From the NCBI GenBank assembly GCA_030390025.1, contig CM059431.1, positions 134,542,001-134,606,000 of the forward strand: DNA of 64,000 nucleotides. The letters run 5' to 3'. The notes below the pieces were generated by a model. That model was not told the DNA's origin. It searched no databases and saw nothing but the letters and a program-made list of their open reading frames with translations. Each line of letters opens with the position of its first letter. Position 1 is the stretch's first letter. The translations under genes and the position numbers were made by a program. This document shows, in pieces, positions 7,081 to 62,990 of this stretch. The DNA is from Squalus acanthias. Lineage: Eukaryota.

Positions 7081-8723
7081 GAGGGAAACTGTGGGCTTAT
7101 CTAAGATGAAGTTAAGCCTGGGATGGCGGCAGGAGAGTAGGAAGGTTGAAGAATTGGGGTAGGGATTTGGGAGGGCAGAGTACTCGAGAGGGGAGAAATG
7201 AAAGGAGGCATGACAACAGCAGAGAGGGGTTTAGGAGGGATAGAGAGAAAAGAAGTTAAAAAAAGGGGAGAAAAAAGCGGAAATAGAAGTGATGGGCTCG
7301 TGTCCGGAGTGGCAGCCAAAATGCACACGCGAATGGACACGGGGAAAACTCAAGTTACATAGCCCTGGTTACGAACCAATTATTAGGATACATATATCCT
7401 GGTAGTAACAGGGAATAGATAGGAGACAATAGGAGGGAGTCCAGGGTTGAAGTCAGAGGTCCTGTGGTGGGATAAAGTTGACGTAGGTAGGGTGGAGTCG
7501 GTATGCCATGGAGCATCAACAAACTGTTGTCCAAGTTCGGAGACAGGTGTAGCAGGCGCGTGAAATCCAGAAGCTATTTGAAGGGTAGAGATTGGAGGAT
7601 GGAGGTATTTCCGTGGGAATAAAGATCCAGGAGATGTGCAGAATCAATTGCGGGGCAGAAAGATGATGGCGAAGTTGGAGGTCACCATAAGATCCAGAAG
7701 CTGCGGAGAAATGTACTTTTGCCCAGGAGAGTGAAATGCTAGTCAGGAACCAGGCTGTAGCAAAACCTGAAAAACCAGTAGAACCAGTCACAGGCTCAGC
7801 AAGGAACAGTAGTCATGGGGGAAGGGCTCTAAGCTGATCAAAGTTACTTTAAAATTTAAGCACAGAGCAGCAGATCAGAGACACGGCAGATGAGTCTTAC
7901 AGTGTAATTCAGTGCAGAAGTGTAGTCTTGGTGTCCAGAGAAGTCCAGGAAATTGAAAGCCAAATGTGAGAAGAGATCCAGAAGCTCAATGAGAGAAGCA
8001 GCAAGCAGACATGGTTGGGGGTGGGCAGTGGCGGTTTAAACTAGCAGTTAACTTCTAGTTAGGGCTAAAATGCACCCACTATAAGAGCCAGCGGAACTTA
8101 AACAGTGGAAGAGAGGAGATTGGGAGAGAAAGGGCAAAGGATGGCAGCCGATGGCCAAGGATAGAGGTGCACAATGAGGAGCTCCCTAGGGAGCAGAATG
8201 CCCAGGAGACATTTTGACAAACATCAGAACTTCAATTATTTTAAAATTCTAAGTTGGTCAAAACTATCGGGCTTTTTTTTAAAAGGTTATTGAGATAATG
8301 TGTAACTTTTTGCAGAGGCACCAATGAGACACAGACAGTTCCAAGTCTACCAATTTCCAAGGGCAATTCAATAAGAGACAGTTATTTGGTTATTAACTGG
8401 CATTTTTAAAGTAATAGATTAGGCAATAAAACAAATTCTCACTCCTGCCAGAACTTCCAGTGAAGTAAAAGAAAGGAAAAGAAGAAATTAAAACATCTGA
8501 AAGACTACCTAAAAGTTGACTTTTAATTGGTGCTGAGGTCCTGTATACAATGCAAATTAATGTTTTGGTGGTTTATATTAACAAGGATGTTTGCAATTAT
8601 TTCCAAGTACATAAAGCAATAATCGCAATCAGCAAATTACTTGTTAAAGCAAATCCCCCATCATGCAAACTACCTTGCAGCACAATTTTATAATTTTATT
8701 TCAGTCCCTGAAAAGACACTTAC

Positions 8724-8913
8724 TTCTTCTAAGTGAATATTGTCCAAGTCATATGAGCTGTGTAAAGATTCTACCAACCAACTTTCAGGTGTAATCATGT
8801 TTAGGGTAAACAAGGGCATTTCTGGCATTTCAAGAAATTTGGCTACAGGTCCTGTTGATAAATAGTTGTCAGCTGTGAAGACCAGTTCAGGCTCCAGCAC
8901 AAAACGGTAAAAG
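8724..8913 (-). CDS. UGGT2: UGGT internal coding exon
   Basis: cag|CTTTTAC...GAAGAA|gtaagt; 190 nt; FYRFVLEPELVFTADNYLSTGPVAKFLEMPEMPLFTLNMITPESWLVESLHSSYDLDNIHLEE; FYRFVLEPEL, NMITPE and DNIHL fit UGGT2 better than UGGT1 (from memory of the paralogues). Confidence 0.93.
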
Positions 8914-9831
8914 CTGTGGGCAGAATACAGTAGATTGAGTTTCTGTGCACTGTCGACAGTCAAAAACTATTCATGCACCTTGTAAAAAAAACCTAAAATG
9001 CAAGTGGCACATCTTTGCAAATATACTGTGTTGAAAATGTAAGCCTAATAAGTACCATCTACCTAAGTGTTTATGTTCAGCTAAAAATCACCTACTCACA
9101 CTTTATGGGATTGATAATGAGCTTCCTGTCGTTTAAAGCACAGCTCACTGTAAATCACAGCGCAACTTATTATGCACTACAATCAAATGCCCCCTTTCTG
9201 ATACAAATCTTATGAGCAGGAGTTGGCATGAACTGGGGACTGAGCATGAATCAATCAAAACCAAACAAAATCATAGAATCCTCGAATGGTAACAGCACAG
9301 AAGGAGGCCATTCAGCCCGTCGAGCCTGTGCCGGCTCTCTGCAAGAGCACTTCAGCTAGACCCACTCCCCCGCCCTTTCCCTGTAGTCCCTTTTGAAAGC
9401 CACGATTGAGTTTGCCTCCACCACCCTCTCGCTGCGTAAAAAATCATTTCCTCATGTTGCCTTTGGTTCTTTTGCCAATCACCTTAAATCTATGTCCTCT
9501 GGTTCTCGACCCTTCCGCCAATGGAAATAGTTTTTCTCTATTTACTCTGTCTAGACCCCTCATGATTTTGAATACCACTATCAAATCTCCTCTCAACCGT
9601 TTCTGCTCTAAGGAGAACAACCCCAGCTTCTCTAGTCTATCCACGTAACTGAAGTCCCTCATCCCTGGAATCATTCTCGTAAATCTTTTCTGCACCCTCT
9701 CTAAGGCCTTCACATCCTTCCTAAAGTGCGGTGCCCAGAATTGGATACAATACTCCAGTTGAGGCCGAACCAGTGTTTTATACAGGTTCATCATAACTTC
9801 CTTGCTTTTGTACTCTATGCCTCTCTTAATG

Positions 9832-10413
9832 AAATTGAGAGGTCGCACAACACCAGGTTATAGTCCAACAGTTTTATTTGAAATCACAAGCTTTCGGAGC
9901 TATCGCTCCTTCCTCAGGTGAAGTAAATTGGATACAGAATCGCCAGAGCATATATAGATGGAAAAAAAAGCATGTGTACTTTACAATTGCAGACCAATAA
10001 ATTAAATCATCCTGACTATCTGCCGAGGTGTGATAAAGTTAATTAAGTCAGCCAGGAAGGTACCACATCAAAAGACATAGCAAGATACAACTGAGACAAT
10101 GAGGTGTAGTCGCAGGGGTTCTAACGTGTCAAAAGCTGCCGTCTGTATGTAAAACGAAAAGCTTTTAAAAAAAATTTACTTTTTTACTGGGAAAATTTTT
10201 ACTTTTTTACTGGGAATCACATCTGTGAACAAGCTAACGACGACTCGAGTCCGGATCACGTCATGTATCGTGACATAAACCCAAGATCCCGATTGAGACC
10301 GTCTTCATGAGTGCGGAACTTGGCTATCAGTTTCTGCTCGATGATTTTGCGTTGTCGTGTGTTTCTAAGGTTGCCTTGGAGAACGCTTACCCGCAGATCC
10401 GAGGCTGAATGTC
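9832..10413 (-). repeat. 3' pseudo-LTR of the Penelope-like element
   Basis: 582-bp direct repeat of 12970-13551 (offset 3138); only one mismatch noticed (10112 g vs 13250 a). Confidence 0.95.
9884..9921 (-). ncRNA. Minimal type I hammerhead ribozyme motif
   Basis: Minus strand TCAC-CTGAGGA-A-GGAGC gata GCTCC-GAAA-GC-TT-GTGA: core boxes, stem I, stem II and palindromic AAGCTT stem III. Confidence 0.82.
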
Positions 10414-12934
10414 CTTGACTGCTGAAGTGTTCCCCGACTGGGAGGTAACAATCCTGCCTGGCGATTGTTGCGCGGTGCTCGTTCATACGTTGTCTCAGTG
10501 TCTGCATGGTCTCGCCGATGTACCATGCCGCGGTGCATTCTTTCCTGCAACGTATGAGGTAGACAACGTTGGCCGAGTCACATGAGTATGTACCATGTAC
10601 CTGGTGGGTAGTGTCCTCACGTGTGATGGTGGTATCTGTGTTGATGATCTGGCATGTCTTGCAGAGTTTGCCATGGCAGGGTTGTGTGGTGTCGTGGTCG
10701 CTGTTATCCTGAAAGCTGGGTAATTTGCTGCGAACGATGGTACTTCTGAGGTTAGGCGGCTGTTTGAAGGCAAGTAGTGGAGGCGTGGGGATGGCCTTAG
10801 CGAGGTGTTTGTCGTCATCGATGACATGTTGAAGGCTGCGAAGAACATGTCGTAGTTTCTCCGCTCCGGGGAAGTACTGGACGACGTAGGGTACCCTGTT
10901 GGTTGTGTCCCGTGTTTGCCTTCTGAGGAGGTCTATGCGATTTTTCGCTGTGGCCCGTCGGAACTGTCGATCGATGAGTCGAGCGTCATATCCCGTTCTT
11001 ACGAGGGCGTTTTTCAGCGTCCGTAGGTGTCCATCGCGTTCCTCCTCGTCTGAGCAGATCCTGTGTATTCGCAGGGCTTGTCCATAGGGGATGGCTTCTT
11101 TAACATGGTTAGGGTGCAAGCTGGAGAAGTGGAGCATCGTGAGGTTGTCCGTGGGCTTGCGGTAGAGTGAAGTGCTGAGGTGTCCGTCTTTGATGGAGAT
11201 TCGTGTGTCCAGGAATGAGACCGATTCTGAGGAGTAGTCCATGGTGAGTTTGATGGTGGGATGGAACTTGTTTATGTTATCGTGTAGTCTTTTCAGTGAT
11301 CCTTCGCCATGGGTCCAAAGGAAGAAAATGTCGTCGATGTATCTGGTGTACAGCGTTGGCTGGAGGTCCTGTGCAGCGAAGAAGTCTTGCTCGAACTTGT
11401 GCATGAAGATGTTGGCGTATTGGGGTGCGAATTTGGTCCCCATGGCTGTTCCGTGTGTTTGGGTAAAAAAATGGTTGTCGAAGGTGAAGACATTGTGGTC
11501 AAGGATGAAGCGGATGAGTTGTAGGATGGCGTCTGGAGATTGGCTGTTGTTGATGTTGAGTACTGAGGCTGTTGCAGCGATGCCGTCATCGTGGGGGATA
11601 CTGGTGTAGAGTGCCGATACGTCCATCGTGGCAAGGAGTGTTCCTGGTTCAACTGGTCCGTGGGTGCTGAGTTTCTGTAAGAAGTCTGTAGTGTCGCGAC
11701 AGAAGCTGGGGGTTCCCTGTACGATGGGTTTCAGAATGCCCTCGACGTATCCAGAGAGGTTCTCACATAGGGTTCCATTGCCTGATACGATAGGACGTCC
11801 GGGTGTGTTGGCTTTGTGTATCTTTGGGAGGCAGTAGAAGTCTCCCACGCGGGGAGTACGTGGGATGAGAGCGCGTAGGATGTTTTGAAGGTCTGGATCG
11901 AAGGTCTTGATCAGTCTATTGAGTTGGCGGGTGTGTTCTTTGGTCGGATCTGCGGGTAGCTGTCTGTAGTGTTCCTGGTTGTCCAGTTGTCGGTATGCTT
12001 CTTTACAATAGTCCGTTCTGTTCTGTATGACGATGGCTCCTCCTTTGTCCGCTGGTTTGATGACAATGTTGCGGTTGGTCTCGAGAGCGTGGATGGCGTT
12101 GCGTTGTGCTCGGGTGACATTCTGGACTGTCTTGTGAGTGCGGCTGATGAATCTGGCGTTGATGCATTTCCTGATAGCTTGAGCATACATGTCAAGCTTG
12201 GGGCAGCGACCCTCCGGAGGGGTCCAGTTTGACTCTTTTTTCTTCGGTTGCTGCACTGCGAGTCCCTCTGTCTGCTGTTCTGGATCATTGATTGTCTCAT
12301 TGGGTTTGTTGCTGACATCTTGGGATTTGTGGAAGTATTCCCGGAGCCTCATTCTCCTGATGAATTCCTCCGTGTCTGCCGCGAGACCGATGGGGTCCAT
12401 TTTGGTGGTTGGGCAGAACTTGAGCCCTAGGGCGAGAACTTCGATTTCGTCTGGTTGAAGGGTATGGTCGGACAAGTTGACGATGGACTTCCCTGTGGTT
12501 GCAGCCGTGGTACCGGGGGAGGCTTGGTTGCTGCTGGTGGTGATGCCGAGTTTCTCAAGCTTCCTGTTCTTGATGCGCATGTAGGCAGCGTAGTTCCGTT
12601 GCCTCGTCTGTTTGGTGGTGTCTCGTAACTGGTCTGCTGTGTCCTGAGCACAGGCTGAGAGCATGGACTCTATCTTGGTTTCGAGGTTGTGGCGTTTGCT
12701 GTAGAGCTGGTGTACGAGATGGTTGAGGAGTGTGCGAGAGGTACGACGGCAGAGTCTCTCAGCGTAGTCTGTGTTGTATGTCGACTTGAGTGGGTTCGTG
12801 ATCTGTAGTCCTTTCGGGATCTTGTCTGCTTTCTTGCATCTCTGTAGATACTTGATGTCGGTGTCGATATGCGCGATCTTCTTGGCGATTCTCTCCACTT
12901 TGAGCCGGCAGTTTGTGGTGTCGATAGTGGTCAT
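10256..12934 (-). CDS. Penelope-like RT/GIY-YIG endonuclease polyprotein (892 aa from first ATG)
   Basis: Uninterrupted ORF; KPADKG, LPKIHK, GRPIVS, MDVSALYTSI, GTAMG, RYIDD, FLD; Cys linker CHGKLCKTC; NVVYLIRC...WYIGET...LRQRMNEH...GLN. Confidence 0.95.
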   Translation of the reverse strand: MTTIDTTNCRLKVERIAKKIAHIDTDIKYLQRCKKADKIPKGLQITNPLKSTYNTDYAERLCRRTSRTLLNHLVHQLYSKRHNLETKIESMLSACAQDTADQLRDTTKQTRQRNYAAYMRIKNRKLEKLGITTSSNQASPGTTAATTGKSIVNLSDHTLQPDEIEVLALGLKFCPTTKMDPIGLAADTEEFIRRMRLREYFHKSQDVSNKPNETINDPEQQTEGLAVQQPKKKESNWTPPEGRCPKLDMYAQAIRKCINARFISRTHKTVQNVTRAQRNAIHALETNRNIVIKPADKGGAIVIQNRTDYCKEAYRQLDNQEHYRQLPADPTKEHTRQLNRLIKTFDPDLQNILRALIPRTPRVGDFYCLPKIHKANTPGRPIVSGNGTLCENLSGYVEGILKPIVQGTPSFCRDTTDFLQKLSTHGPVEPGTLLATMDVSALYTSIPHDDGIAATASVLNINNSQSPDAILQLIRFILDHNVFTFDNHFFTQTHGTAMGTKFAPQYANIFMHKFEQDFFAAQDLQPTLYTRYIDDIFFLWTHGEGSLKRLHDNINKFHPTIKLTMDYSSESVSFLDTRISIKDGHLSTSLYRKPTDNLTMLHFSSLHPNHVKEAIPYGQALRIHRICSDEEERDGHLRTLKNALVRTGYDARLIDRQFRRATAKNRIDLLRRQTRDTTNRVPYVVQYFPGAEKLRHVLRSLQHVIDDDKHLAKAIPTPPLLAFKQPPNLRSTIVRSKLPSFQDNSDHDTTQPCHGKLCKTCQIINTDTTITREDTTHQVHGTYSCDSANVVYLIRCRKECTAAWYIGETMQTLRQRMNEHRATIARQDCYLPVGEHFSSQGHSASDLRVSVLQGNLRNTRQRKIIEQKLIAKFRTHEDGLNRDLGFMSRYMT

Positions 12935-12969
12935 GATGCGGAGATGCCGGTGTTGGACTGGGGTGGACA

Positions 12970-13551
12970 AAATTGAGAGGTCGCACAACACCAGGTTATA
13001 GTCCAACAGTTTTATTTGAAATCACAAGCTTTCGGAGCTATCGCTCCTTCCTCAGGTGAAGTAAATTGGATACAGAATCGCCAGAGCATATATAGATGGA
13101 AAAAAAAGCATGTGTACTTTACAATTGCAGACCAATAAATTAAATCATCCTGACTATCTGCCGAGGTGTGATAAAGTTAATTAAGTCAGCCAGGAAGGTA
13201 CCACATCAAAAGACATAGCAAGATACAACTGAGACAATGAGGTGTAGTCACAGGGGTTCTAACGTGTCAAAAGCTGCCGTCTGTATGTAAAACGAAAAGC
13301 TTTTAAAAAAAATTTACTTTTTTACTGGGAAAATTTTTACTTTTTTACTGGGAATCACATCTGTGAACAAGCTAACGACGACTCGAGTCCGGATCACGTC
13401 ATGTATCGTGACATAAACCCAAGATCCCGATTGAGACCGTCTTCATGAGTGCGGAACTTGGCTATCAGTTTCTGCTCGATGATTTTGCGTTGTCGTGTGT
13501 TTCTAAGGTTGCCTTGGAGAACGCTTACCCGCAGATCCGAGGCTGAATGTC
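12970..13551 (-). repeat. 5' pseudo-LTR of the Penelope-like element
   Basis: Copy of the ORF 3' end plus 3' UTR placed upstream of the ORF. Confidence 0.95.
13022..13059 (-). ncRNA. Minimal type I hammerhead ribozyme motif (second copy)
   Basis: Identical to 9884-9921. Confidence 0.82.
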
Positions 13552-16352
13552 TCTTAATGAAGCCCAGGATCCCGTATTCTTTTTTAACCGCTTTCTCAAC
13601 CTGCCCTGCCACCTTCAACGATTTGTGCACATATACCCCCAGGTCTCTCTTTTCATGCACCCCCTGTAGCATTATACCCTTTAGTTTATATTGCCTCTCC
13701 TCGTTCTTCCTACCAAAATGTATCACTTTGCACTTTTCTGCGTTAAATTTCATCTGCCATCTGTCCGCCCATTTCACCAGCCTGTCTATATCTTCTTGAA
13801 GTCTATCACTATCCTCCTCACCGTTGACTATACTTCCAAGTTTTGTGTCATCTGCAAATTTTGAAATTGTGCCCTGTATTCCCAAGTCCAAGCCATTAAT
13901 ATATATCAAGAAAAGCAGTGGTCCTAGTACCGACCCCTGGGGAACACCACTGTATACCTTCCTCCAGTCCGAAAATCAACTGTTCACCACTACTCTCTGT
14001 TTCCTATCACTTAGCCAATTTCGTATCCATGCTGCCACTGTCCCTTTTATTCCATGGGCTTCAACTTTGCTGGCAAGCTTATTATGTGGCACTTTATCAA
14101 GAGCCTTTTGGAAGTCCATGTACACCACATCAACCACATTGCCCTCATCAATCCTCTCTGTTACCTCATCAAAAAACTCGATCAAGTTAGTTAAACACGA
14201 TTTTCCTTTAACAAATCCGTGCTGGCTTTCCTTAATTAATCCACACTTGTCCAAGTGACTGTTAACTTTGTCCCTGATTATAGTTTCTAAAAGCTTCCCC
14301 ACTACCGAGGTTAAACAGACTGGCTTGTAGTTGCTGGGTTTATCTTTACACCCTTTTTTGAACAAGGGTGTAACATTTGTAATTCTCCATCCTCTGGCAA
14401 CACCCCCATATCCAAGGAGGATTGGAAGATTATGGCCAGTACCTCCGCGATTTCCTCCTTAGCCTCCCTCAGCATCCTAGGATGCATCCCATCCGGTCCT
14501 GCTGACTTATCAACTTTAAGTATAGACTGTCTTTCTAGTACCTCCTCTTTATCAATTTTTATCTCATCCAGTATCTCCACTACTTCCTCTTTCACTATGA
14601 CTTTGGTAGCATCTTCTTCCTTGGTAAAGACAGATGCAAAGTACTCATTTAGTACCTCAGCCATACCCTCTGTCTCCATGCGTAGAGCTCCTTTTTGGTC
14701 CCTAATCGGCTCCACCCCCTCCTCTTACTACCCGTTTATTATTTATATCCCTATAGAAGATGTTTTAATTCCCTTTTATGTTAGCTGCCAATCTATTCTC
14801 ATATTCTCTCTTTGCCCCTCTTATTTTCTTCTTCACTTCCCCTCTGAACTTTCTATATTCAGTCTGATTCTCACTTGTATTCTCAACCTGACATCTGTCA
14901 TATGCCCCTTTTTTTACTCTCTATCTCTTTCATCATCCAGGGAGCTCTGGCTTTACTTGCCCTACCTTTTCCTCTCATGGGAATGTACCTCGACTGCACC
15001 CGAACCACCTCTTCTTAAAGGCAGCCTTTTTTTGAGCCAGGTGTCCATTATCGCCATGACATCATATTTCTATGTGGCTATTTGCGCCTGCAGCTCACCA
15101 ACCTTATTTACCACACTTCATGCGTTTACACAGATGCATTGTAAACCTGTCTTAGACCTTCTTGTATTCTCTCTTAGTCTGACCCCATCTAATACAGTAC
15201 TATTTCTTTCTCTAGTGCTATCTGTCTCTCTCCATCCTTTGTGCACTTTGTTTCTCCTTTCTAATGCTACATCCTGGTGCCCATCCCCCTGCCAAATTAG
15301 TTTAAACCCTCCCAACAGCACTAGCAAACGCCCCCCCCACGAGGACATTGGTCCCGGCTCTGTTCAGGTGCAACCCGTCCGACCTGTACAGGTCCCACCT
15401 CCCCCAGAACTGGTCCCAATGTCCCAGGAATCTGAAGCCCTCCCTCTTGCACCATCTCTCCAGCCACGCATTCATCTGCTCTATCCTCCTGTTTCTATAC
15501 TCCGGCTCCCGTGCAACTGAGACTGTAAAGCGCCTTTTCCACAGCAAGCTTACATCGAAAGGCCCTTTCCCACAGCCTGCATGGAAACTTAGCAAAATCA
15601 AATCAAATTAGGAGAGTTGACAACATAATAAAAAGTACTTGTATTGATATAGCCCCTTATCATGCCCTTTGCCATACTGATATTTATCAAAATATTGGAG
15701 AACTAAACACCAGAGCTTTGACAGCAGACTGAGGCCAGCAAAAGAAGAAAGAGAACAGGTGATGCAATTGGAATGAAGAACTGGACAAAGTTCAATGGGG
15801 GAATGCCATTCAATGTGTAGGATACAAAAGTCTTAAACGCGAAATATTTCTAGGTGTCTTTTGTATGATTGTATGTGGAGAATGATGAATGGATAAGAAT
15901 ATAGGTTACAATTTCCTATCACCTGTTTGAAACAAAACATCTGTAGTGCTATAGTACTAACCCTTTATACCATACACCTTCTACTCCTATACAACACAGC
16001 CGGTCTATCATGCTCACTCATACACCTGGCCTGATTAAACAGAAAATCCATGGCTGCTGTAAGCAGGATCCTGACAAGACAGTCAGTAACCAAAACAGGG
16101 TCACAGGGCTTAACTCTTTTTGCAAAATAATACAAGTTCAGAGAGCTGGACCATTCCGCAAGTTCTCAGCAGCAGTTCATGAAATTAGTTGGGCTCAGCA
16201 ATAGTACTTAGGGGACAGACTCCCAGCCAGAATAGGAAATATGAATCTGTTTGCTTATTTAATGCTACAATGCAACTGAGAATTTTTTAAGTTTCTCCCC
16301 AAACTTTTGTAATTCTGCAGAAACAGTACAGCATTCTGGCCCTAACCATAGT

Positions 16353-42415: not shown

Positions 42416-45400
42416 TGTAAAATTCGCAAATTATCGCGATTTTGAAATAACGAGAAAGAGAGACACAGATTCGTTAAAACAGTTTTATTTCAGCAAAATG
42501 CTGTCAGGTTTCAAAACGGACACAAGAAGCCTGTAAAATGGCCGCCGCGCCTCGTGGCAGAAGTTTCTAGACTTTCAGTAGGCAGACAAGATGGCGTTCC
42601 AATAAACTTTTCAGCAAGATCGGACAATGCTCAGCATATATTGATATAAGACAAGACGCGATCGTTTTGCATTTTGACACCTAAGCAAGAAATATAAGTG
42701 CTGGAATCGGTTTTCCATACACAAACGAGGGCTATTGTACTGAGCAATCAAGGGCCCATCCAAAGACATTGATATGCAAATTCCCCACGGCTCTACGATG
42801 AGAGAGCCGTTCGCGGGTACTCACAGCAAGAATTCGGAGGCCCCCAAAACCCCTCCAGGGAGACTCCTAGCCGGTTCCACAATGGGAGAAATATTAACGG
42901 GTACTTAGACAGTTACAGGGACTCAAGGCGGATAAATCACCTGGACCTGATGGCTTACATCCTAGAGTCTTGAAGGAAGTGGCGGTAGGGATTGTAGATG
43001 CATTGGTAATAATTTTTCAAAACTCCCTGGATTCCGCTAAGGTCCCGGCAGACTGGAAAACTGCTAATGTAACACCCTTATTTAAAAAGGGCAGTAGACA
43101 GAAGGCTGGTAACTATAGACCGGTTAGCCTAACATCTGTGGTAGGTAAAATTTTGGAGTCCATTATTAAGGAAACAGTAACAGGACATTTGGATAATCAT
43201 AATTTAATAGGACAAAGTCAGCATGGTTTTACGAAGGGGAAGTCATGTTTGACAAATTTGCTGGAGTTCTTTGAGGAAGTAACATATAGAGTGGATAAAG
43301 GGGAACCAGTGGACGTAGTGTATTTAGACTTCCAAAAGGCATTTGACAAGGTGCCACACAAAAGATTATTGCTTAAGGTAAAAAATCACGGGATTGGGGG
43401 TAATATTCTGGCATGGATAGAGGATTGGCTATCTAACAGAAAGCAAAGAGTTGGGATAAATGGTTCATTCTCAGACTGGCAATCAGTAACTAGTGGTGTT
43501 CCACAGGGGTCAGTGCTGGGTCCCCAACTCTTCACAATCTATATTAACGATTTGGAGGAAGGGACCAAGTGTAACATATCAAAATTTGCAGATGATACAA
43601 AGATGGGAGGGAAAGTAGTGAGTGAGGAGGACATAAAAAACCTGCAAGGGGACATAGACAGGCTAAGTAAGTGGGCAGAGATTTGGCAGATGGAATACAA
43701 CACTGGAAAGTGTGAGGTGATGCACTTTGGCAGGAAAAATCCTAGAGCAATTTATTATCTTAATGGCAAGAAACTGGAGAGTACTGAAGTGCAAAGGGAT
43801 CTGGGGGTCCTGGTGCACGAAACTCAAAAGGTTAGTATGCAGGTGCAGCAAGTGATTAAGAAGGCAAATGGAATGTTGGCTTTCATTGCTAGGGGGATAG
43901 AATATAAAAATAGGGAGGTATTGCTTCAGTTGTACAAGGTATTGGTGAGACCGCACCTGGAATACTGCATACAGTTTTGGTGTCCTTACTTAAGGAAAGA
44001 CATCCTTGCTCTCGAGGCAGTGCAAAAAAGGTTCACTCGGTTAATCCCGGGGATGAGGGGGTGGTCATATGAGGAGAGGTTGGGTAGATTGGGACTCTAC
44101 TCATTGGAGTTCAGAAGAATGAGAGGCGATCTTATTGAAACATATAAGATTGTGAAGGGGTTGGATCGGGTGGATGCGGGGAGGATGTTCCCGATGACGG
44201 GTGAGACGAGAACTAGGGGACATAGTCTTAGAATAAGGGGCTGCTCTTTCAAAACTGAGATGAGGAGGAACTACTTCACTCAGAGGGTGGTAGGTCCATG
44301 GAATATGCTGCCACAAAAAGCTGTAGAAGCTACAACATTAATTAAATTTAAAACAGAAATAGACAGTTTCCTAGAAGTAAAGGGCATTAAGGGTTACGGG
44401 GAGCGGGCAGGAATTTGGACATGAGTCTAGGTTCGGATCGGTCATGGCCCTGTGGGTAGTGGAGCGGGCCCAGGGACTGTGTAGGTGATTCTGCTCCTAT
44501 TTCGTGTGTGCAATTCTGTTAGATGCAGGAGATGGTTCTGTGATAGATAGTAGATTGGCGGTTAGGATCAGATCAGCCATGATCTTATTGAATGGCGGAG
44601 CAGGCTCGAGGGGCCGATTGGCCTACTCCTGCTCCTATTTCTTATGTTCTTATGTTCTTATGTTCTTACAAGTATCACCGAAACCCATTAACAACAAGAA
44701 CCACCCCATACAAGAAGTTTGAGCGCCAAAACATGACAAAAGATGAACATTAAGTTTGGGCGGGAGATAAGGAATTACAGTACTATAACTGTAGTGTCCA
44801 AACGTCCATCTTTCTCTTATCCTTTTCATTCGCTTGGAATCGACTCTTGGCTCTTATCCCGGACGACCGTTATTCTCTCTTGTTCCGCTGATCCCTTTTG
44901 GGGTCGACCTCGTGGCGCGCTGCGAAATCGGGTGCACCATCCCGAAGGTCGGTAAACGGTGTCTGGACCCAAAGGCTCGAGGAGATGAGATGAGAAGAGA
45001 AGAAGAAGAATCCACGTGCCGCCGCGGTCAGTAAACCCCGACCGCGCCCGAAATAAGTGAACTTTGTTAAGCTATATAGGTTTTGATCGGAAATCCGAGG
45101 TCAACACAGATCTTCATAACAGCAGACGATTTAGCCTGCTAGCCGGAGCAGAGCAAATAAACAAGTGGGGTACAGAGACCCCTGGTCAACACGTGAATGG
45201 TCAGGTGTTGCAGCGAAAACAGCCGAGCGCCGTTTTAGAATTCTCCGAGGTATTACGAGTGGTGAGCATGTTTCTCGATCCTACAGATCTAGATTAGAGC
45301 AGGCATTGATAGGGGAGGGGGGTTTTATTAAGGATAATTATAATGTGTGTCCCCTTTTTCGATGTGTCGTGCGCTCCTCGTTTCCCTAAACCTAGTTTAA

Positions 45401-52649: not shown

Positions 52650-55600
52650 AGTGCGGTTTGAGCAGAGTGCTGGGAGTTGGGTGAGTCAGGGAGTCTTAAC
52701 TGTTTGCTAAAATCAAACTTTTGTTTGTTTCACTTTTACTGTTTAAAATCTAAATTTCCCAGCCTAAGCAGGGTTATAAAGGGATGGACAAGGCCTACAA
52801 TTCAGAGCAGCTGAAGGCAGTTAATTAGGGAAACTAGATTAAGCTGGTTTTCCTGTAGCAGGGCTCGGCAAGCTCCTTTGTTTCAGGGCCTATAAAAACA
52901 GGCTTTGCAGTGCGATTTGCACCGAGTGCGGTTTGAGCAGAGTGTTGAGAGTTGGGTGAGTTAGAGGAGGGGTTCCCTTGCTTCGCCTTTGCTTTTCCTA
53001 ACTTTTCACCCTGTAGGAATTGGTTCTTACTTTATACCAAGGAAAGAGTTCGAGAGCGGGAGCAATCCAACAACAACAATTGCAAAACCACTAAAGTGAC
53101 GTCACAACCAGGGAAGTAGCTGATTAGTAAGTAGGACCCGGTGAGTGTTTCTACAGTCCAGTTGTTAAAGTAAAAGTAAGGTTCTAGTTTAGAATAAGTA
53201 GTGTTTAAAGTGAAGTAAGGTCCCTAGTGTATTTAATATTCTTTAATTTAGAGGAAATAAAGGGAGTAAATTAACGGTAGGACATGGCAGGGCAGCTTGG
53301 CAGCGTGGAGTGCTCCTCCTGTGCTTTGTGGGAAGTCAGGGACACTTTTGGTGTCCAGGGCGAACACATGTGCAGGAAGTGTCTCCAGCTGCAGTTACTC
53401 GAAATCCGCGCTTTGGAGCTGGAGCTGCGGCTGGAGTCACTGTGGAGCATCCACGAGGCTGAGATCTTCGTGGATAGAAAGTTTAACGAGGTAGTCACAC
53501 CGCAGGTAAAGAGTGCACAGGCAGAAAGGGAATGGGTGACCGCCAGACAGAGTAAAAGAACTAGGAAGGTAGTGCAGGAGTTCCCTGGGTCCCTCTCCCT
53601 CTCCAACAGATTTTCCGTTTTGGATACTGCTGGGGGAGATGGTTTCTCAGGGGAATGCAGCAAGAGCCAAGTCCGTGGCACTACGAGTGGCTCAGCTGCA
53701 CAGGAGCGGAGGAAAAAGAGTGGGAGAGCAATAGTGATGGGGGATTCTATCGTAAGGGGAACAGATAGACGTTTCTGTGGCCGCAGACATGACTCCAGGA
53801 TGGTATGTTGCCTCCCTGGTGCCAGGGTCAAGGATGTCACTGAGCGGCTGCAGGACATTCTGAAGGGGGAGGGTGAACAGCCAGAGGTTGTGGTCCATAT
53901 CGGTACCAACGACATAGGTAGAAAGAGCGACGAGGTCCTGCAAGCAGAATATGGGGAGCTAGGAAATAAATAAAAAGCAGGACCTCAAAGGTAGTAATCT
54001 CAGGATTACTCCCAGTGCCACGTGCTAGCGAGAGCAGAAATAGGAGAATAGACCAGATGAATGCGTGGCTGGACAGATGGTGTAGGAGGGAGGGAATTAA
54101 ATTCCTGAGGCATTGAGACCAATTCTGGGGAAGGTGGGACCTGTACAAGCTGGACGGGTTACACCTCGGCTGAACCGGGACCAATGTCCTCGCAGGGGGG
54201 TTTGCTAGTGCAGTTGGGAAGGATTTAAACTAGTTTGTCAGGGGGCTGGGAACCTAAGTGTGGGCCCAGAACAGAGAGAAACAAAGCTGGAAGTGCAAGT
54301 TAGAAAAGTAGTCAGCAAAACTAGTAGGGAGCAGAAACAAAGACCAACAGTAAAGAGGGTCAAAGTGCAGAAAAATATTAAACAGGCAAAGTTGAAGGCA
54401 CTTTATCTAAATGCACGTAGCATTCGCAACAAGGTGGATGAATTAATGGCACAAATAGAAGTAAATGGGTATGATGTAATGCCATTACAGAGACATGGTT
54501 GCAGGGTAACCAAAGCTGGGAACTGAATGTTCAACATTTAGGAAGGACAGACAAAAAGGAAAAGGAGGTGGCGTAGCGCTGTTAAGGGATGAGCTCGGTA
54601 CAGTAGAGATAAAAGATTTTGGCTCGGCAGATCGTGATGTAGAACTGGAATCAGTTTGGGTGGAGTTAAGAAACAGCAATGGGCGGAAAACATTGGTGGG
54701 AGTTGTGTATAGGCCACCAAACAGTAGTGGTAATGTAGGGCACAGTATCAATTAAGAAATTAGAAGTGCATGTAACAAGGGCAATATGGTAACCATGGGG
54801 GACTTTAATCTACATATTGACTGGGCAAATCAAATTACCACTAATGGTGTGGAGGGCGAATTCTTGGAATGCATGCGTGAAGGTTTCCTGGATCAGTATG
54901 TGGAGGAACCAACCAGGGAACAGGCTATTCTGGATCTGGTACTGTGTAATGATAAAGGGCTAATCAATAATCTTGTGGTAAAGGGGCCTTTAGGGACAAG
55001 TGACCATAATATGACTGAATTTTACATTAAGTTTGAGAGTGATGTAGTCCAATCTGAAACTAAGGTCTTCAATCTAAACAGAGGATACTACAAGGGTATG
55101 AGGGACAAGTTGGCCATGGTAGATTGGGAGACTACATTAAAAGGTATGAAGGTGGACATACAATGGCTAACATTCAAGGAAATAATGCATAATTTGCAAC
55201 AAACATATATTCCTCTGGGGTATAAAAACCCAAAAGGAAAAGTGATCCAACCATGGCTAGCAAAAGAAATTAAAGCTAGTATTAAGTCAAAGGAGGAAGC
55301 TTATAAAGTTGCCAGAAAAAGCGGTCAGCCTGAGGATTGGGATCTTTTTAAAAATCAGCAAAGGGCGACCAAGAAATTGATAAAGAAAGGGAAAATGGAA
55401 TATGAGCACAAACTAGCGAAAAATATAAAAACCGACTGTAAAAGCTTCTATAGGTATGTGAAAAGGAAAAGACTGGCGAAGGTAAATGTAGGTCCTTTAC
55501 AGTCATAGACAGGAGAATTTATAATGGGGAATGAGGAAATGGCAGAGAAATTAAATAAATACTTTGTTTCTGTCTTCATGAAGGAAGACACAAAAAAATC

Positions 55601-57244
55601 CCAGAAATACGAGAAAACCAAAGGTGTGGCGAGAATGAGGAACTTAAAGAAATTATTATTAGTAAAAAAAACAGTACTAGCAAAATTAATGGGACTAAAA
55701 GTTGATCAATCCCAAGGACCGGATGACCTACATCCTAGGGTTTTGAAAGAGGTGGCCATTGGGATAGTGGACACATTGGTTGTCATCTTCCAAAATTCTA
55801 TAGATTCTGGAACGGTTCCTGCAGATTGGAGGATAGCAAGTGTAACCCCGCTATTTAAGAAAGGAGGGAGAGAGAAAACGGGGAACTACAGACCTGTTAG
55901 CCTCACATCAGTAGTTGGGAAAATGCTGGAATCTATTATAAAGGATGCAATAACTGGGCACTTAGAAACTAATAGTAAGATTGGGCAGAGTCAACATGGA
56001 TTTATGAAAGGGAAATCCTGTTTAACAAACCTATTGGAGTTCTTTGAGGATGTAACTAGTGGAGTAGACAAAGGGGAACCGTTAGATGTGGTGTATTTGG
56101 ATTTTCAGAAGACCTTCGATAAGGTCCCACATAAGAGGTTGGTAAACAAAATTAGGGTACATGGAATTTGGGGTAATATACTAGCATGGATTGAGAATTG
56201 GTTAACAGACAGAAAACAAAGAGTAGGGATAAACGGGTCTTTTTCAGGATGGCAGGCTGTGACTAGTGGGGTACCGCAAGGATTGATGCTTGGGCCCCAG
56301 CTATTCACAATCTATATCAATGATTTGGATGAGGGGACTAAATGTAACATTTCTAAATTTGCTGATGATACAAAGCTAGGTGTCAGTTGCGAAGAGGATG
56401 TGAAGAGGCTTCAAGGGGATCTCGACAGGCTCAGTGAGTGGGCGAGAACATGGCAGATGGAATATAATGTGGATAAATGTGAAGTTATCCACTTTGGTAG
56501 AAAAAACCGAAAGGCAGAGTATTTCCTAAATGGTGAAAGATTGGGGAATGCAGATTCTCAAAGGGACCTGGGTGTCCTTGTACAGGAGTCACTGAAAGTG
56601 AATGTGCAGGTGCAGCAAGCCATTAGGAAGGCAAATAGTATGCTGGCCTTCATTACAAGAGGATTTGAGTACAGGAGTAAAGAAGTCTTACTCCAATTAT
56701 ATAGAGCCTTGGTGAGACCACAACTGGAGTACAGTGTACAATTTTGGTCTCCTTACCTAAGGAAGGATATACTTGCCATAGAGGGAGTGCAACAAAGGGT
56801 CACGAGATTGATTCCTGGGATGGCGGGACTGTCGTATGAGAAGAGATTGAGTAAACTAGGCCTGTATTCTCTTGAATTCAGAAGAATGAGAGGGACTCTC
56901 ATTGAAGCATACAAAATGATTACAGGGCTTGATAGGGTGGATGCTGGGAAAATGTTTCCCTTGGCTGGGGAGTCTAGAACCAGGGCCATTCAGGACTGAG
57001 ATGAGAAGAAATTTCTTCACACAGAGGGTGGTGAATCTTTGGAATTCTCTACCCCAGAGGGCTCTGGAGGCTCAGTCATTGGGTATATTCAAAACAGAAG
57101 TCGATAGATTTCTGACTAGTAAGGGCATCAAGGGATATGGCGATAGGGCCGGTGAATGGAGTTGAGGCAGAAGATCAGCCATGATCTCATTGAATGGCAG
57201 AGCAGGCTCAAAGGCCTACTCCTGCTCCTATTTCTTATGTTCTT
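52650..57244 (+). mobile_element. Full-length CR1 LINE (5' UTR, ORF1 from 53284, ORF2 ~54260-57165) with disabling mutations
   Basis: ORF1 Zn finger + GDS esterase; ORF2 YLNARSIRNK, GDFN, SDH, FADD; TSD atctg at 52645-52649 and 57245-57249. Confidence 0.93.
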
Positions 57245-62480: not shown

Positions 62481-62990
62481 AAGGAGATGGTAATGGGACA
62501 AGTTAAGAAACAAAAGATGGCTCTAGATGAAGTGTAAATAGCGATGGCAGAATGAAAGACAGCTGCCATGTGAGAGAGAGGAGAAAAAAAAGATAGGGGC
62601 TTCATTGGAACAGTGTAAGAGGCCGAGGATGGTGAGGTCTGAGAGGGAGTGGAGCGGAGAATTAAAGTGACAGGCGACCGGGAGCTCGGGGTCACCCTTG
62701 CGGACTGAAGGCAGGTGTTCCACAAAGCGGTCACCCAATCTGCGTTTGGTCTCCCCAAAGTAGAGGAGACCGCATCGTGAGCACTGTTCCAATGAAGCTC
62801 AACGTAAGCTTGAGAAACAGCACCTCATCTTTCGATTAGGCACTTTACAGTCTTCTGAACTCAACATCGAATTCAACAATTTCAGACCATAACCTCTGCC
62901 CCTATCTTTTTTTTCCATTTTTTTTCTGTTTCTCTCTCCATAATGCTGCCTGACCTGCTGAGTATTTCCAGCATTTTCTGTTTTTATTTC
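62480..62990. mobile_element. Penelope-like remnant (second family) with internal inversion
   Basis: Minus strand CSRCGLLYFGETKRRLGDRFVEH...PVACHFN...HCSNEA; plus strand HCSNEAQRKLEKQHLIFRLGTLQ...LNIEFNNFRP*. Confidence 0.85.

Follow-up and report, generated by a model that had tools for sequence, protein, structure and literature searches.

Is the retroelement that interrupts a UGGT intron in this window (the whole 64-kb stretch of shark DNA that we analysed) an intact, very young and possibly still active Penelope-like element (PLE), as the initial annotation proposed, and by what route did the copy arrive? Our analysis indicates, with a probability of about 85%, that the element is a single recent copy from a Neptune-type PLE family, one that is autonomous, reaches very high abundance in this shark and has passed by vertical inheritance among sharks. 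Its orientation is sense with respect to UGGT, in the intron between the exons at 23724-23645 and 8913-8724. The features on which the argument draws are as follows.

9834..13549, minus strand: whole Penelope-like insertion, delimited by repeats and target-site duplication
10256..12934, minus strand: single ORF of 892 aa, with N-terminal helical region, RT, linker and putative GIY-YIG domain
Within 10256..12934, minus strand: ORF motifs GLKF (170), DKG (296), RT D438, GTAMG (495) and YIDD (532)
10652..10678, minus strand: linker motif C753-x4-C758-xx-C761 (CX2-5CxxC, diagnostic of the Neptune/Nematis type)
10259..10567, minus strand: putative GIY-YIG endonuclease (Y792, C796, C800, Y805-G807, R814, H820, H836, H842, E866, N881)
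12972..13549, minus strand: upstream pseudo-LTR, a 5'-truncated copy holding the ORF's last 51 codons (residues 842-892) and the 3' UTR
9834..10413, minus strand: downstream pseudo-LTR, holding the ORF end and 3' UTR and stopping without a tail
12935..12971, minus strand: 37-nt leader that separates the upstream repeat from the ATG, present once only
9822..9833, no strand: left target-site duplication, 12 bp, AT-rich; its last 2 nt are shared with the element's template
13550..13561, no strand: right target-site duplication, 12 bp; its first 2 nt also match the element
9280..15610, minus strand: host CR1-type LINE, decayed and split by the insertion, its reading frame in phase across the site
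8724..8913, minus strand: UGGT exon, 921 bp downstream of the element

The insertion measures 3716 bp, or 1.18 units of 3138 bp, and its previously annotated limits were exact, being bounded by a perfect 12-bp target-site duplication (the sole matching length among 5 to 19). The 582-bp direct repeats with one mismatch were likewise recovered, at 9832-10413 and 12970-13551. At each end of this match, two bases are shared with the flanks as microhomology, which leaves a repeat proper of 580 bp. The sole mismatch (10112 G vs. 13250 A) is a CpG/CpA pair, i.e., a CpG transition. The 37-nt leader matches the optional PLE 'tail' (PMC8557442, PMC11167929), which is absent from this copy's 3' end; other family copies end at 12931-12938, that is, with the tail included (contig joints whose shorter side has 20-27 letters). 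No joint indicative of a spliceosomal intron, as carried by some PLE members, was found among the 15 of 317 contig joints listed.

The ORF is uninterrupted from 12934 to 10256 on the minus strand (892 aa plus stop), as the initial annotation had it. RVT_1 was the sole Pfam match (E 1.4e-8), and a fold search with the protein placed telomerase RTs at ranks 1 to 9; a sequence search of solved structures gave a single match (E 0.91). No Pfam match to the GIY-YIG family was obtained in the 892-aa ORF, and the putative nuclease call rests on conserved residues and on PF01541 being listed for many homologues. Among these residues are those of the CCHH signature, with C796 and C800 between GIY and YIG and with H820, H836 and H842 all conserved. 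The predicted protein keeps 151/151 strongly conserved columns (>=90%), and the ORF still encodes every strongly conserved residue; G545 of this copy occurs in 0/23 homologues. The predicted structure suggests long N-terminal helices.

With its partial-tandem pseudo-LTRs, telomerase-related RT and GIY-YIG residues, the element fits the Penelope-like label that it had been given. Nematis is a nematode group. The CX2-5CxxC linker between the RT and the C-terminal endonuclease is a Neptune character that is shared with Nematis (PMC8557442). The choice between Poseidon and Neptune that the initial annotation left to be made falls on Neptune by this linker motif (C753, C758, C761), our protein tree being one without named Neptune or Poseidon references. 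Three other assignments were rejected: the Penelope/Poseidon clade lacks the linker Zn-finger that is present here; Naiad/Chlamys elements have an N-terminal endonuclease (with DKA in Naiads), whereas the nuclease here is C-terminal and DKG stands at 296; and the Hydra clade lacks CCHH and has DKT and a CxCX5C linker, in contrast to the CCHH and DKG seen here. Described Neptune elements (PMC8557442; killifish, PMC12602865) resemble the shark element in their single ORF with RT, CX2-5CxxC linker and C-terminal GIY-YIG with CCHH, in their DKG and GxKF motifs and partial-tandem pseudo-LTR, and in a hammerhead and a variable target-site duplication; they differ in that the shark copy sits in a CR1 coding region. 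Every feature of the element has already been described for PLEs. Our literature search, judged by title or abstract start, found no shark Penelope family matching this one, and the family may already be catalogued in Repbase or Dfam.

How the copy was made can be approached through two candidate ribozymes, which lie exactly one unit apart.

13023..13059, minus strand: upstream copy of the minimal type I hammerhead motif, with cleavage predicted 92 nt ahead of the ATG
9885..9921, minus strand: downstream copy of the minimal type I hammerhead motif, with cleavage predicted 55 nt short of the insertion's 3' end

The hammerhead pattern gave two matches against none expected (100 shuffles), a result that speaks to location only, the pattern having been derived from the window itself. 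Folding yields helices I and II, the monomer fold being weak (z -1.81), and Rfam returned no match, hammerhead included, on 9500-14000 at E up to 5. The motif resembles the minimal type I hammerheads described for metazoan PLEs (PMC4209133) in its full core with an extra base between 9 and 10.1, its G10.1-C11.1 pair and palindromic 15.2-16.2, and its 4-bp helix I with no real helix III; the Schistosoma helix II has 7-8 bp (PMC4209133), compared with 5 bp in the motif predicted here. A 2020 account described the role of minimal hammerheads as a mystery (PMC7761336).

A further point of comparison is PAc, a Poseidon-type element of Anolis carolinensis (PMC11167929). It shares with the shark element an AT-rich target, two 3'-end classes ~35-40 nt apart (tail or no tail), a hammerhead near the pLTR-ORF junction and long N-terminal helices (those of the shark protein coming from the predicted model). 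PAc differs in belonging to the Penelope/Poseidon clade without linker cysteines, in a hammerhead cut 26 nt inside the ORF (vs. a predicted 92 nt upstream of the ATG here), and in RT starts 111-118 nt inside the ORF (PMC11167929), where the shark family has its ends either at the ATG or 37 nt before it. A 9-bp stem across the tail-less end that looks like the PAc stem-loop was rejected, the region folding no better than shuffles (z -0.01).

By analogy with PAc, the GIY-YIG domain would have nicked an AT-rich site in the CR1 copy, and the nicked end, through 2 nt of microhomology, would have primed reverse transcription inside the element RNA. This start point would leave out the 37-nt tail and lie 55 nt past the hammerhead cut. 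The RT would then have copied one full 3138-nt unit and 578 nt of the preceding unit before stopping, and a second nick, 12 bp away, would have completed the insertion. An RNA from a tandem donor, uncut and longer than one unit, is the most likely template. It is also possible, if doubtful, that the 1.18 units derive from a circular monomer RNA, produced by hammerhead cleavage and ligation, in which the RT passed the junction and began a second lap. Such a model has been proposed (PMC4209133), and it would agree with intact hammerhead motifs exactly one unit apart and with a 3' end 55 nt beyond the predicted cut, which means that a cut linear monomer cannot have been the template. However, uncut tandem RNA explains this geometry equally well, PAc with a dead hammerhead is described as inserting equally well (PMC11167929), and the same study found no RNA-seq ends at the PAc cut site.

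For the family at large, we compared 4 of 24 read runs. The unit-to-unit junction was present in contigs of all four (25, 20, 2 and 10 contigs). The summed contig depth of the family was ~10^3.5-10^5 times that of the flank, a measure that is not a copy number. In run X1 it fell from ~9x10^4 times the flank at the 3' end of the ORF to 3.6x10^3 at the 5' end, with the same trend in X3, which is the pattern of 5' truncation. This copy differs from the majority form by 0.97%. Across the 21 of 22 listed ORF sites that we examined (12723, X3 only, was dropped; 107 further rows fell outside this set), 18 were common to other copies, 10 of them synonymous, and the copy can thus be placed in a sub-lineage. 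The three letters that look private to it (11117, 12082 and 12175) are all non-synonymous; the window letter at these sites reached <=0.1% of depth in both other DNA runs, in contigs that drop rare variants. No contig bridging the insertion junction was found in either other DNA run among the 32 of 158,398 pieces listed. Loose ends at 9824-9833 that continue as CR1 trace back to CR1 paralogues.

Had the copy decayed by 0.97%, ~11 repeat mismatches would be expected; only 1 was seen (P = 1.7e-4), and the copy therefore appears to be young. "Very young" would hold in sequence terms, corresponding at a shark mutation rate to roughly 0.02-7 million generations: repeat divergence gave ~0.7-1.2 million generations (95% range ~18,000-6.9 million) at the epaulette-shark rate. 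Allele differences in neighbouring unique DNA were 2/951 and 2/886, approximately the same divergence as between the element's repeats. The CpG richness pointed out earlier is real (observed/expected 0.89, vs. 0.35 and 0.42 in the flanks and 0.47 in the whole window) yet not unique in the window, values of 0.69-0.72 occurring in 4 other bins among the 32 of 2 kb. After this ORF, the longest transposon frames free of stops in the window measure 508 and 496 aa, both CR1-type, which fits the earlier remark that almost every other transposable element here is decayed.

Whether this is a brand-new copy that acts as a source element itself, as had been suggested, is a separate matter, and we consider it rather unlikely. 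The open ORF with all conserved residues, the perfect target-site duplication and the high CpG content would be in keeping with activity, and the single repeat mismatch could stem from an error of the RT, or from a difference already present in the donor, and not from age. ORF sequence was also present, in pieces with 2/206 and 1/384 differences, in run X11 from a close relative, which we treated as RNA because it covers the UGGT exon but no intron. In that run, however, the 5' part of the ORF was not enriched over background repeats (0.1-0.4% of DNA depth vs. 1.6-3.8% for neighbouring CR1 bins), the repeat mismatch is a CpG transition, and the private letters are as rare in the other DNA runs as given above. 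The description of the element as intact and young relative to its flanks is supported; it may, less probably, be active at present. Neutral drift has probably set in, and the copy is possibly, but not necessarily, transcribed.

The initial annotation also asked for a check on horizontal transfer, and the comparisons gave it no support. The protein tree, built from 25 of 29 rows (4 with <180 residues aligned were left out), groups by shark order. Identities of the element (Heptranchias 90.6-92.8%, S. torazame 84.2-86.4%, Mustelus 83.1%) can be set beside UGGT exon matches of 236/249 in Heptranchias, 210/249 in Scyliorhinus canicula and 212/249 in Mustelus. PLE-derived predicted proteins of the same lineage have 87-95% amino-acid identity in Heptranchias perlo and ~70-88% in Scyliorhinus torazame, Mustelus asterias, Chiloscyllium and Hemiscyllium. 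These shark proteins (including those of Heptranchias perlo) are fragments of <=728 aa annotated as uncharacterized, compared with 892 aa here, and the exact 892-aa sequence was not in the protein collection searched. Among the species-named homologues listed, all those at >=70% are sharks, and turtles, gecko and frog stand at ~50% or less. Since the element tree and identities follow the hosts, we found no sign of horizontal transfer. A recent entry into this shark, or passage from it to other organisms, is very unlikely. What might suggest it is a word comparison with a stretch about two-thirds of which is element: runs under four organism labels contain 0.42-0.83 of its words. Organisms D and E gave shares of 0.44 and 0.12-0.15. 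In addition, run X16 (organism C) has pieces of the element, differing at 22/2279, and neither flank nor exon. However, the UGGT exon of organism B is identical over 194 bp, marking a very close kin, and in X16 the host-type CR1 letters and the element letters both occur at 2e-5 to 2e-4 of the depth of X1, an equality that points to trace carry-over. For organisms B and C the transfer reading is largely refuted.

An LTR retrotransposon or an assembly duplication, as two near-identical direct repeats around an RT might suggest, is already refuted by repeats that hold the ORF's own last codons, by the lack of integrase, protease or RNase H in the Pfam scan, by the 12-bp duplication with the CR1 frame in phase, and by the unit-to-unit junction in all four runs.

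For the single copy of a vertically inherited Neptune-type family that we favour, the significance by itself is small: its features are known PLE features throughout, active Neptune families are known in killifish (PMC12602865), and near-identical repeats in a shark are alone no proof of current activity. A further reading, which we hold to be improbable, is that working masters are copied via hammerhead-made circular RNA, with reverse transcription starting at two fixed points, at the ATG or upstream of it, and that copies land repeatedly at one AT-rich CR1 position as a preferred target. If the circle and the CR1 hot spot were true, the ~10^4-10^5 3' ends and the intact copies would form a strong natural data set on PLE tandems and tails, and a protein of Neptune type could be reconstituted alongside Poseidon-type PAc. 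In-vitro work on PLEs, as far as our search reached, has dealt with a Poseidon-type element (PMC11167929); an intact ORF of Neptune type, its ends mapped exactly, can serve directly as a test case. In practical terms, the copy offers a full-length, clean reference for a family that is seemingly among this shark's most abundant repeats and that shark annotations record only as fragments labelled 'uncharacterized protein'.

The element is flanked by a perfect 12-bp target-site duplication (9822-9833 and 13550-13561), and its bounds are therefore 9834-13549, exactly as placed by the initial annotation. Sequence comparison also bears out the uninterrupted ORF of 892 aa (12934 to 10256, minus strand) noted there between 582-bp direct repeats (9832-10413 and 12970-13551), which are alike except for one mismatch (10112 G vs. 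13250 A, in a CpG context). Because the ORF's own last 51 codons are contained in the upstream repeat, this repeat is a truncated tandem copy, and its reading as an LTR is ruled out. The unit length is 3138 bp, so that the insertion comprises 1.18 units; its 3' end is tail-less and each of its two junctions has a microhomology of 2 nt. The CpG contrast holds against the flanks (observed/expected 0.89 in the element vs. 0.35 and 0.42), but four other bins among the 32 bins of 2 kb in the window reach 0.69–0.72.

The insertion interrupts the coding region of a decayed CR1-type LINE; on either side of it, the LINE's frame stays in phase. Both are sense-oriented within an intron of UGGT, where 921 bp separate the element from the next exon downstream (8913-8724).

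UGGT exons in the window
51577-51447, minus strand, UGGT exon
33329-33234, minus strand, UGGT exon
32260-32161, minus strand, UGGT exon
23724-23645, minus strand, UGGT exon
8913-8724, minus strand, UGGT exon
3622-3464, minus strand, UGGT exon

The UGGT orthologue is labelled UGGT1 or UGGT2 inconsistently across shark records. Elsewhere in the window are an old, diverged PLE GIY-YIG fragment (62628-62762; 44% identity over 45 aa) and two CR1-type copies (42898-44424 and 53281-56999) with open stretches of 508 and 496 aa, the latter retaining pieces of ORF1 and endonuclease.

Compared with the majority form (the commonest letters among family copies), the copy departs at 22 of 2279 letters (0.97%). 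As a proxy for that form we used contigs of X16, an organism-C run whose letter is the majority one at 18 of the 21 sites examined. Had the repeats decayed to this extent, they should show ~11 mismatches, and one was observed (P = 1.7e-4). At 18 of the 21 ORF sites examined the window letter was seen in other copies, 10 of these 18 being synonymous, so most of the distance reflects sub-lineage history. Three of the 21 sites, all non-synonymous, look private to the copy among the rows listed (107 more exist), with contigs dropping rare variants. At the rate given in the available text of PMC10587355 (7x10^-10 per generation, interval 1.4–14.1x10^-10), one mismatch in 580 bp corresponds to 1.2 million generations, or 0.7 million with CpG sites weighted tenfold (95% range ~18,000 to 6.9 million). 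Alternatively, the mismatch may stem from an RT error or from a difference in the donor, in which case the copy would be younger. Neighbouring unique DNA differs at 2/951 letters from X1 and 2/886 from X3 (DNA runs of organism A), and the insertion is therefore about as old as local allelic variation. It could be polymorphic in the species; no contig bridging an insertion junction was found among the 32 of 158,398 pieces listed. The open frame argues only weakly for youth: at 1% divergence it would stay intact about one third of the time (point mutations only).

Each repeat contains a minimal type I hammerhead motif (9921-9885 and 13059-13023, minus strand) that shares traits described in the available part of PMC4209133: an additional base following position 9, a helix II with a G-C pair at its base, a short helix I and a palindromic 15.2-16.2. 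No Rfam family matched the motif region, and the monomer is predicted to fold weakly (z -1.81). Cleavage is predicted 92 nt upstream of the ATG and 55 nt upstream of the insertion's 3' end. The element's only two AATAAA motifs (9878 and 13016, minus strand) fall ~10 nt after each predicted cut. Both hammerhead motifs are sense-oriented inside the UGGT pre-mRNA intron; cleavage of the host transcript is conceivable if they are active.

The 37 nt immediately 5' of the ATG are present only once in the element. In 4 of the 15 joints listed (of 317), contigs of X1 and X3 join CR1 9824-9832 to element 12931-12938 (short sides 20–27 letters, depths 15–560), so other copies end with these 37 nt, which are the optional 30-40-bp tail of PLEs as defined in the available text of PMC8557442. 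In PAc, a Poseidon-type PLE of Anolis carolinensis, RT starts at two internal points, and the tail is what lies between them (PMC11167929). These short-sided joints, from the 15 of 317 listed, suggest repeated targeting of the AT-rich CR1 position, a possible insertion hot spot. The tailed copies there carry different CR1 flank letters at the same CR1 position in X1 and X3. A joint of 9866 to 12934 (X1 and X3) suggests that copies have landed in the 3' end of the element itself, and one of 9855 to 11311 (X3 only) suggests an internally deleted derivative.

On the model of PAc and of target-primed reverse transcription in general, the AT-rich target site would be nicked, reverse transcription primed internally at the tail-less start, 1.18 units synthesised by the RT and a second nick made 12 bp from the first. 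Uncut tandem RNA is the favoured template, because PAc can dispense with its hammerhead in vitro (PMC11167929); the alternative is circle RNA, as proposed in the available part of PMC4209133. A cut linear monomer is rejected since the 3' end of the insertion extends past the predicted cut.

Depth was compared in 4 of 24 runs over window 8200-12969. Unique flank had depths of 17–22 (X1) and 7–32 (X3); element depth fell from 1.7 million at the ORF 3' end to 69,000 at the 5' end in X1, and from 0.87–1.26 million to 54,000 in X3. The element/flank ratio (~9x10^4 falling to 3.6x10^3) is used only for its order of magnitude and its fall from 3' to 5', as summed contig depth is not copy number. This fall is the pattern produced by 5' truncation. 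The ORF sequence is also present in X11, an RNA-like run that covers the UGGT exon with 0 differences but not the intron, and is therefore RNA of a very close relative. Its 5' ORF bins reach 0.1–0.4% of DNA depth and CR1 bins 1.6–3.8%, which fits passive read-through; this one run, where contig depth is a poor expression measure, gave no sign of element-driven full-length RNA.

With regard to horizontal transfer, raised in the initial annotation, we found no support. Over residues 437-798, element identity was 90.6–92.8% for four Heptranchias copies, 84.2–86.4% for three of S. torazame and 83.1% for one of Mustelus. These identities parallel those of UGGT, whose six exons encode 249 residues, matching at 236 in Heptranchias perlo, 224 in Cetorhinus, 223 in Heterodontus, 213 in Chiloscyllium, 212 in Mustelus, 210 in Scyliorhinus canicula and 194 in Callorhinchus. 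By this measure Heptranchias is the closest of the taxa compared, though the host shark, putatively a squalomorph, is probably a different species. The protein tree (25 of 29 rows) likewise parallels the hosts, grouping the window with Heptranchias (95/94), Scyliorhinus with Mustelus (95/91) and Chiloscyllium with Hemiscyllium (100/100). Among the species-named matches listed, all at ≥70% were sharks, with many EukProt matches bearing no species name. In X16, element contigs are close to the majority form and come with neither flank nor UGGT exon, but host-type CR1 letters and element letters occur there at the same fraction of X1 depth (2e-5 to 2e-4). The element there is likely trace carry-over mimicking horizontal transfer. 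High-copy repeats of this shark are present in X16 at ~1e-4 of their depth in X1, and single-copy DNA is absent.

Pfam found RVT_1 as the sole family in the ORF protein, and the alignment of 24 sequences showed the consensus kept in all 151 columns conserved at ≥90% among the other 23. Structure prediction was confident (mean pLDDT 86.3), and telomerase RTs made up the top nine structural matches. Under the clade definitions in the available text of PMC8557442, Penelope/Poseidon is excluded by the linker, Naiad and Chlamys by the order of the domains and Hydra by CCHH + DKG, so that Neptune or Nematis remain. Of the Poseidon and Neptune options posed initially, we call the element a putative Neptune type, an assignment by motif definitions. 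Two Heptranchias gene models, epn2 (P0014) and divergent protein kinase domain 2Ab (P0129), include long stretches of the element ORF and are probably annotation fusions.

Our literature search found no paper on this shark PLE family, which Repbase, Dfam or paper supplements may nevertheless list. As far as the available texts go, PMC4350176 reports PLEs across vertebrates, PMC12602865 describes active Neptune families in killifish, and a 2026 preprint (10.64898/2026.07.22.740005) found retrozymes in its sole chondrichthyan. All those features of a canonical EN+ Penelope-like element of Neptune type that could be tested are present in the shark element, which would work in the same way; it is a real, well preserved and ordinary example of an already known kind.
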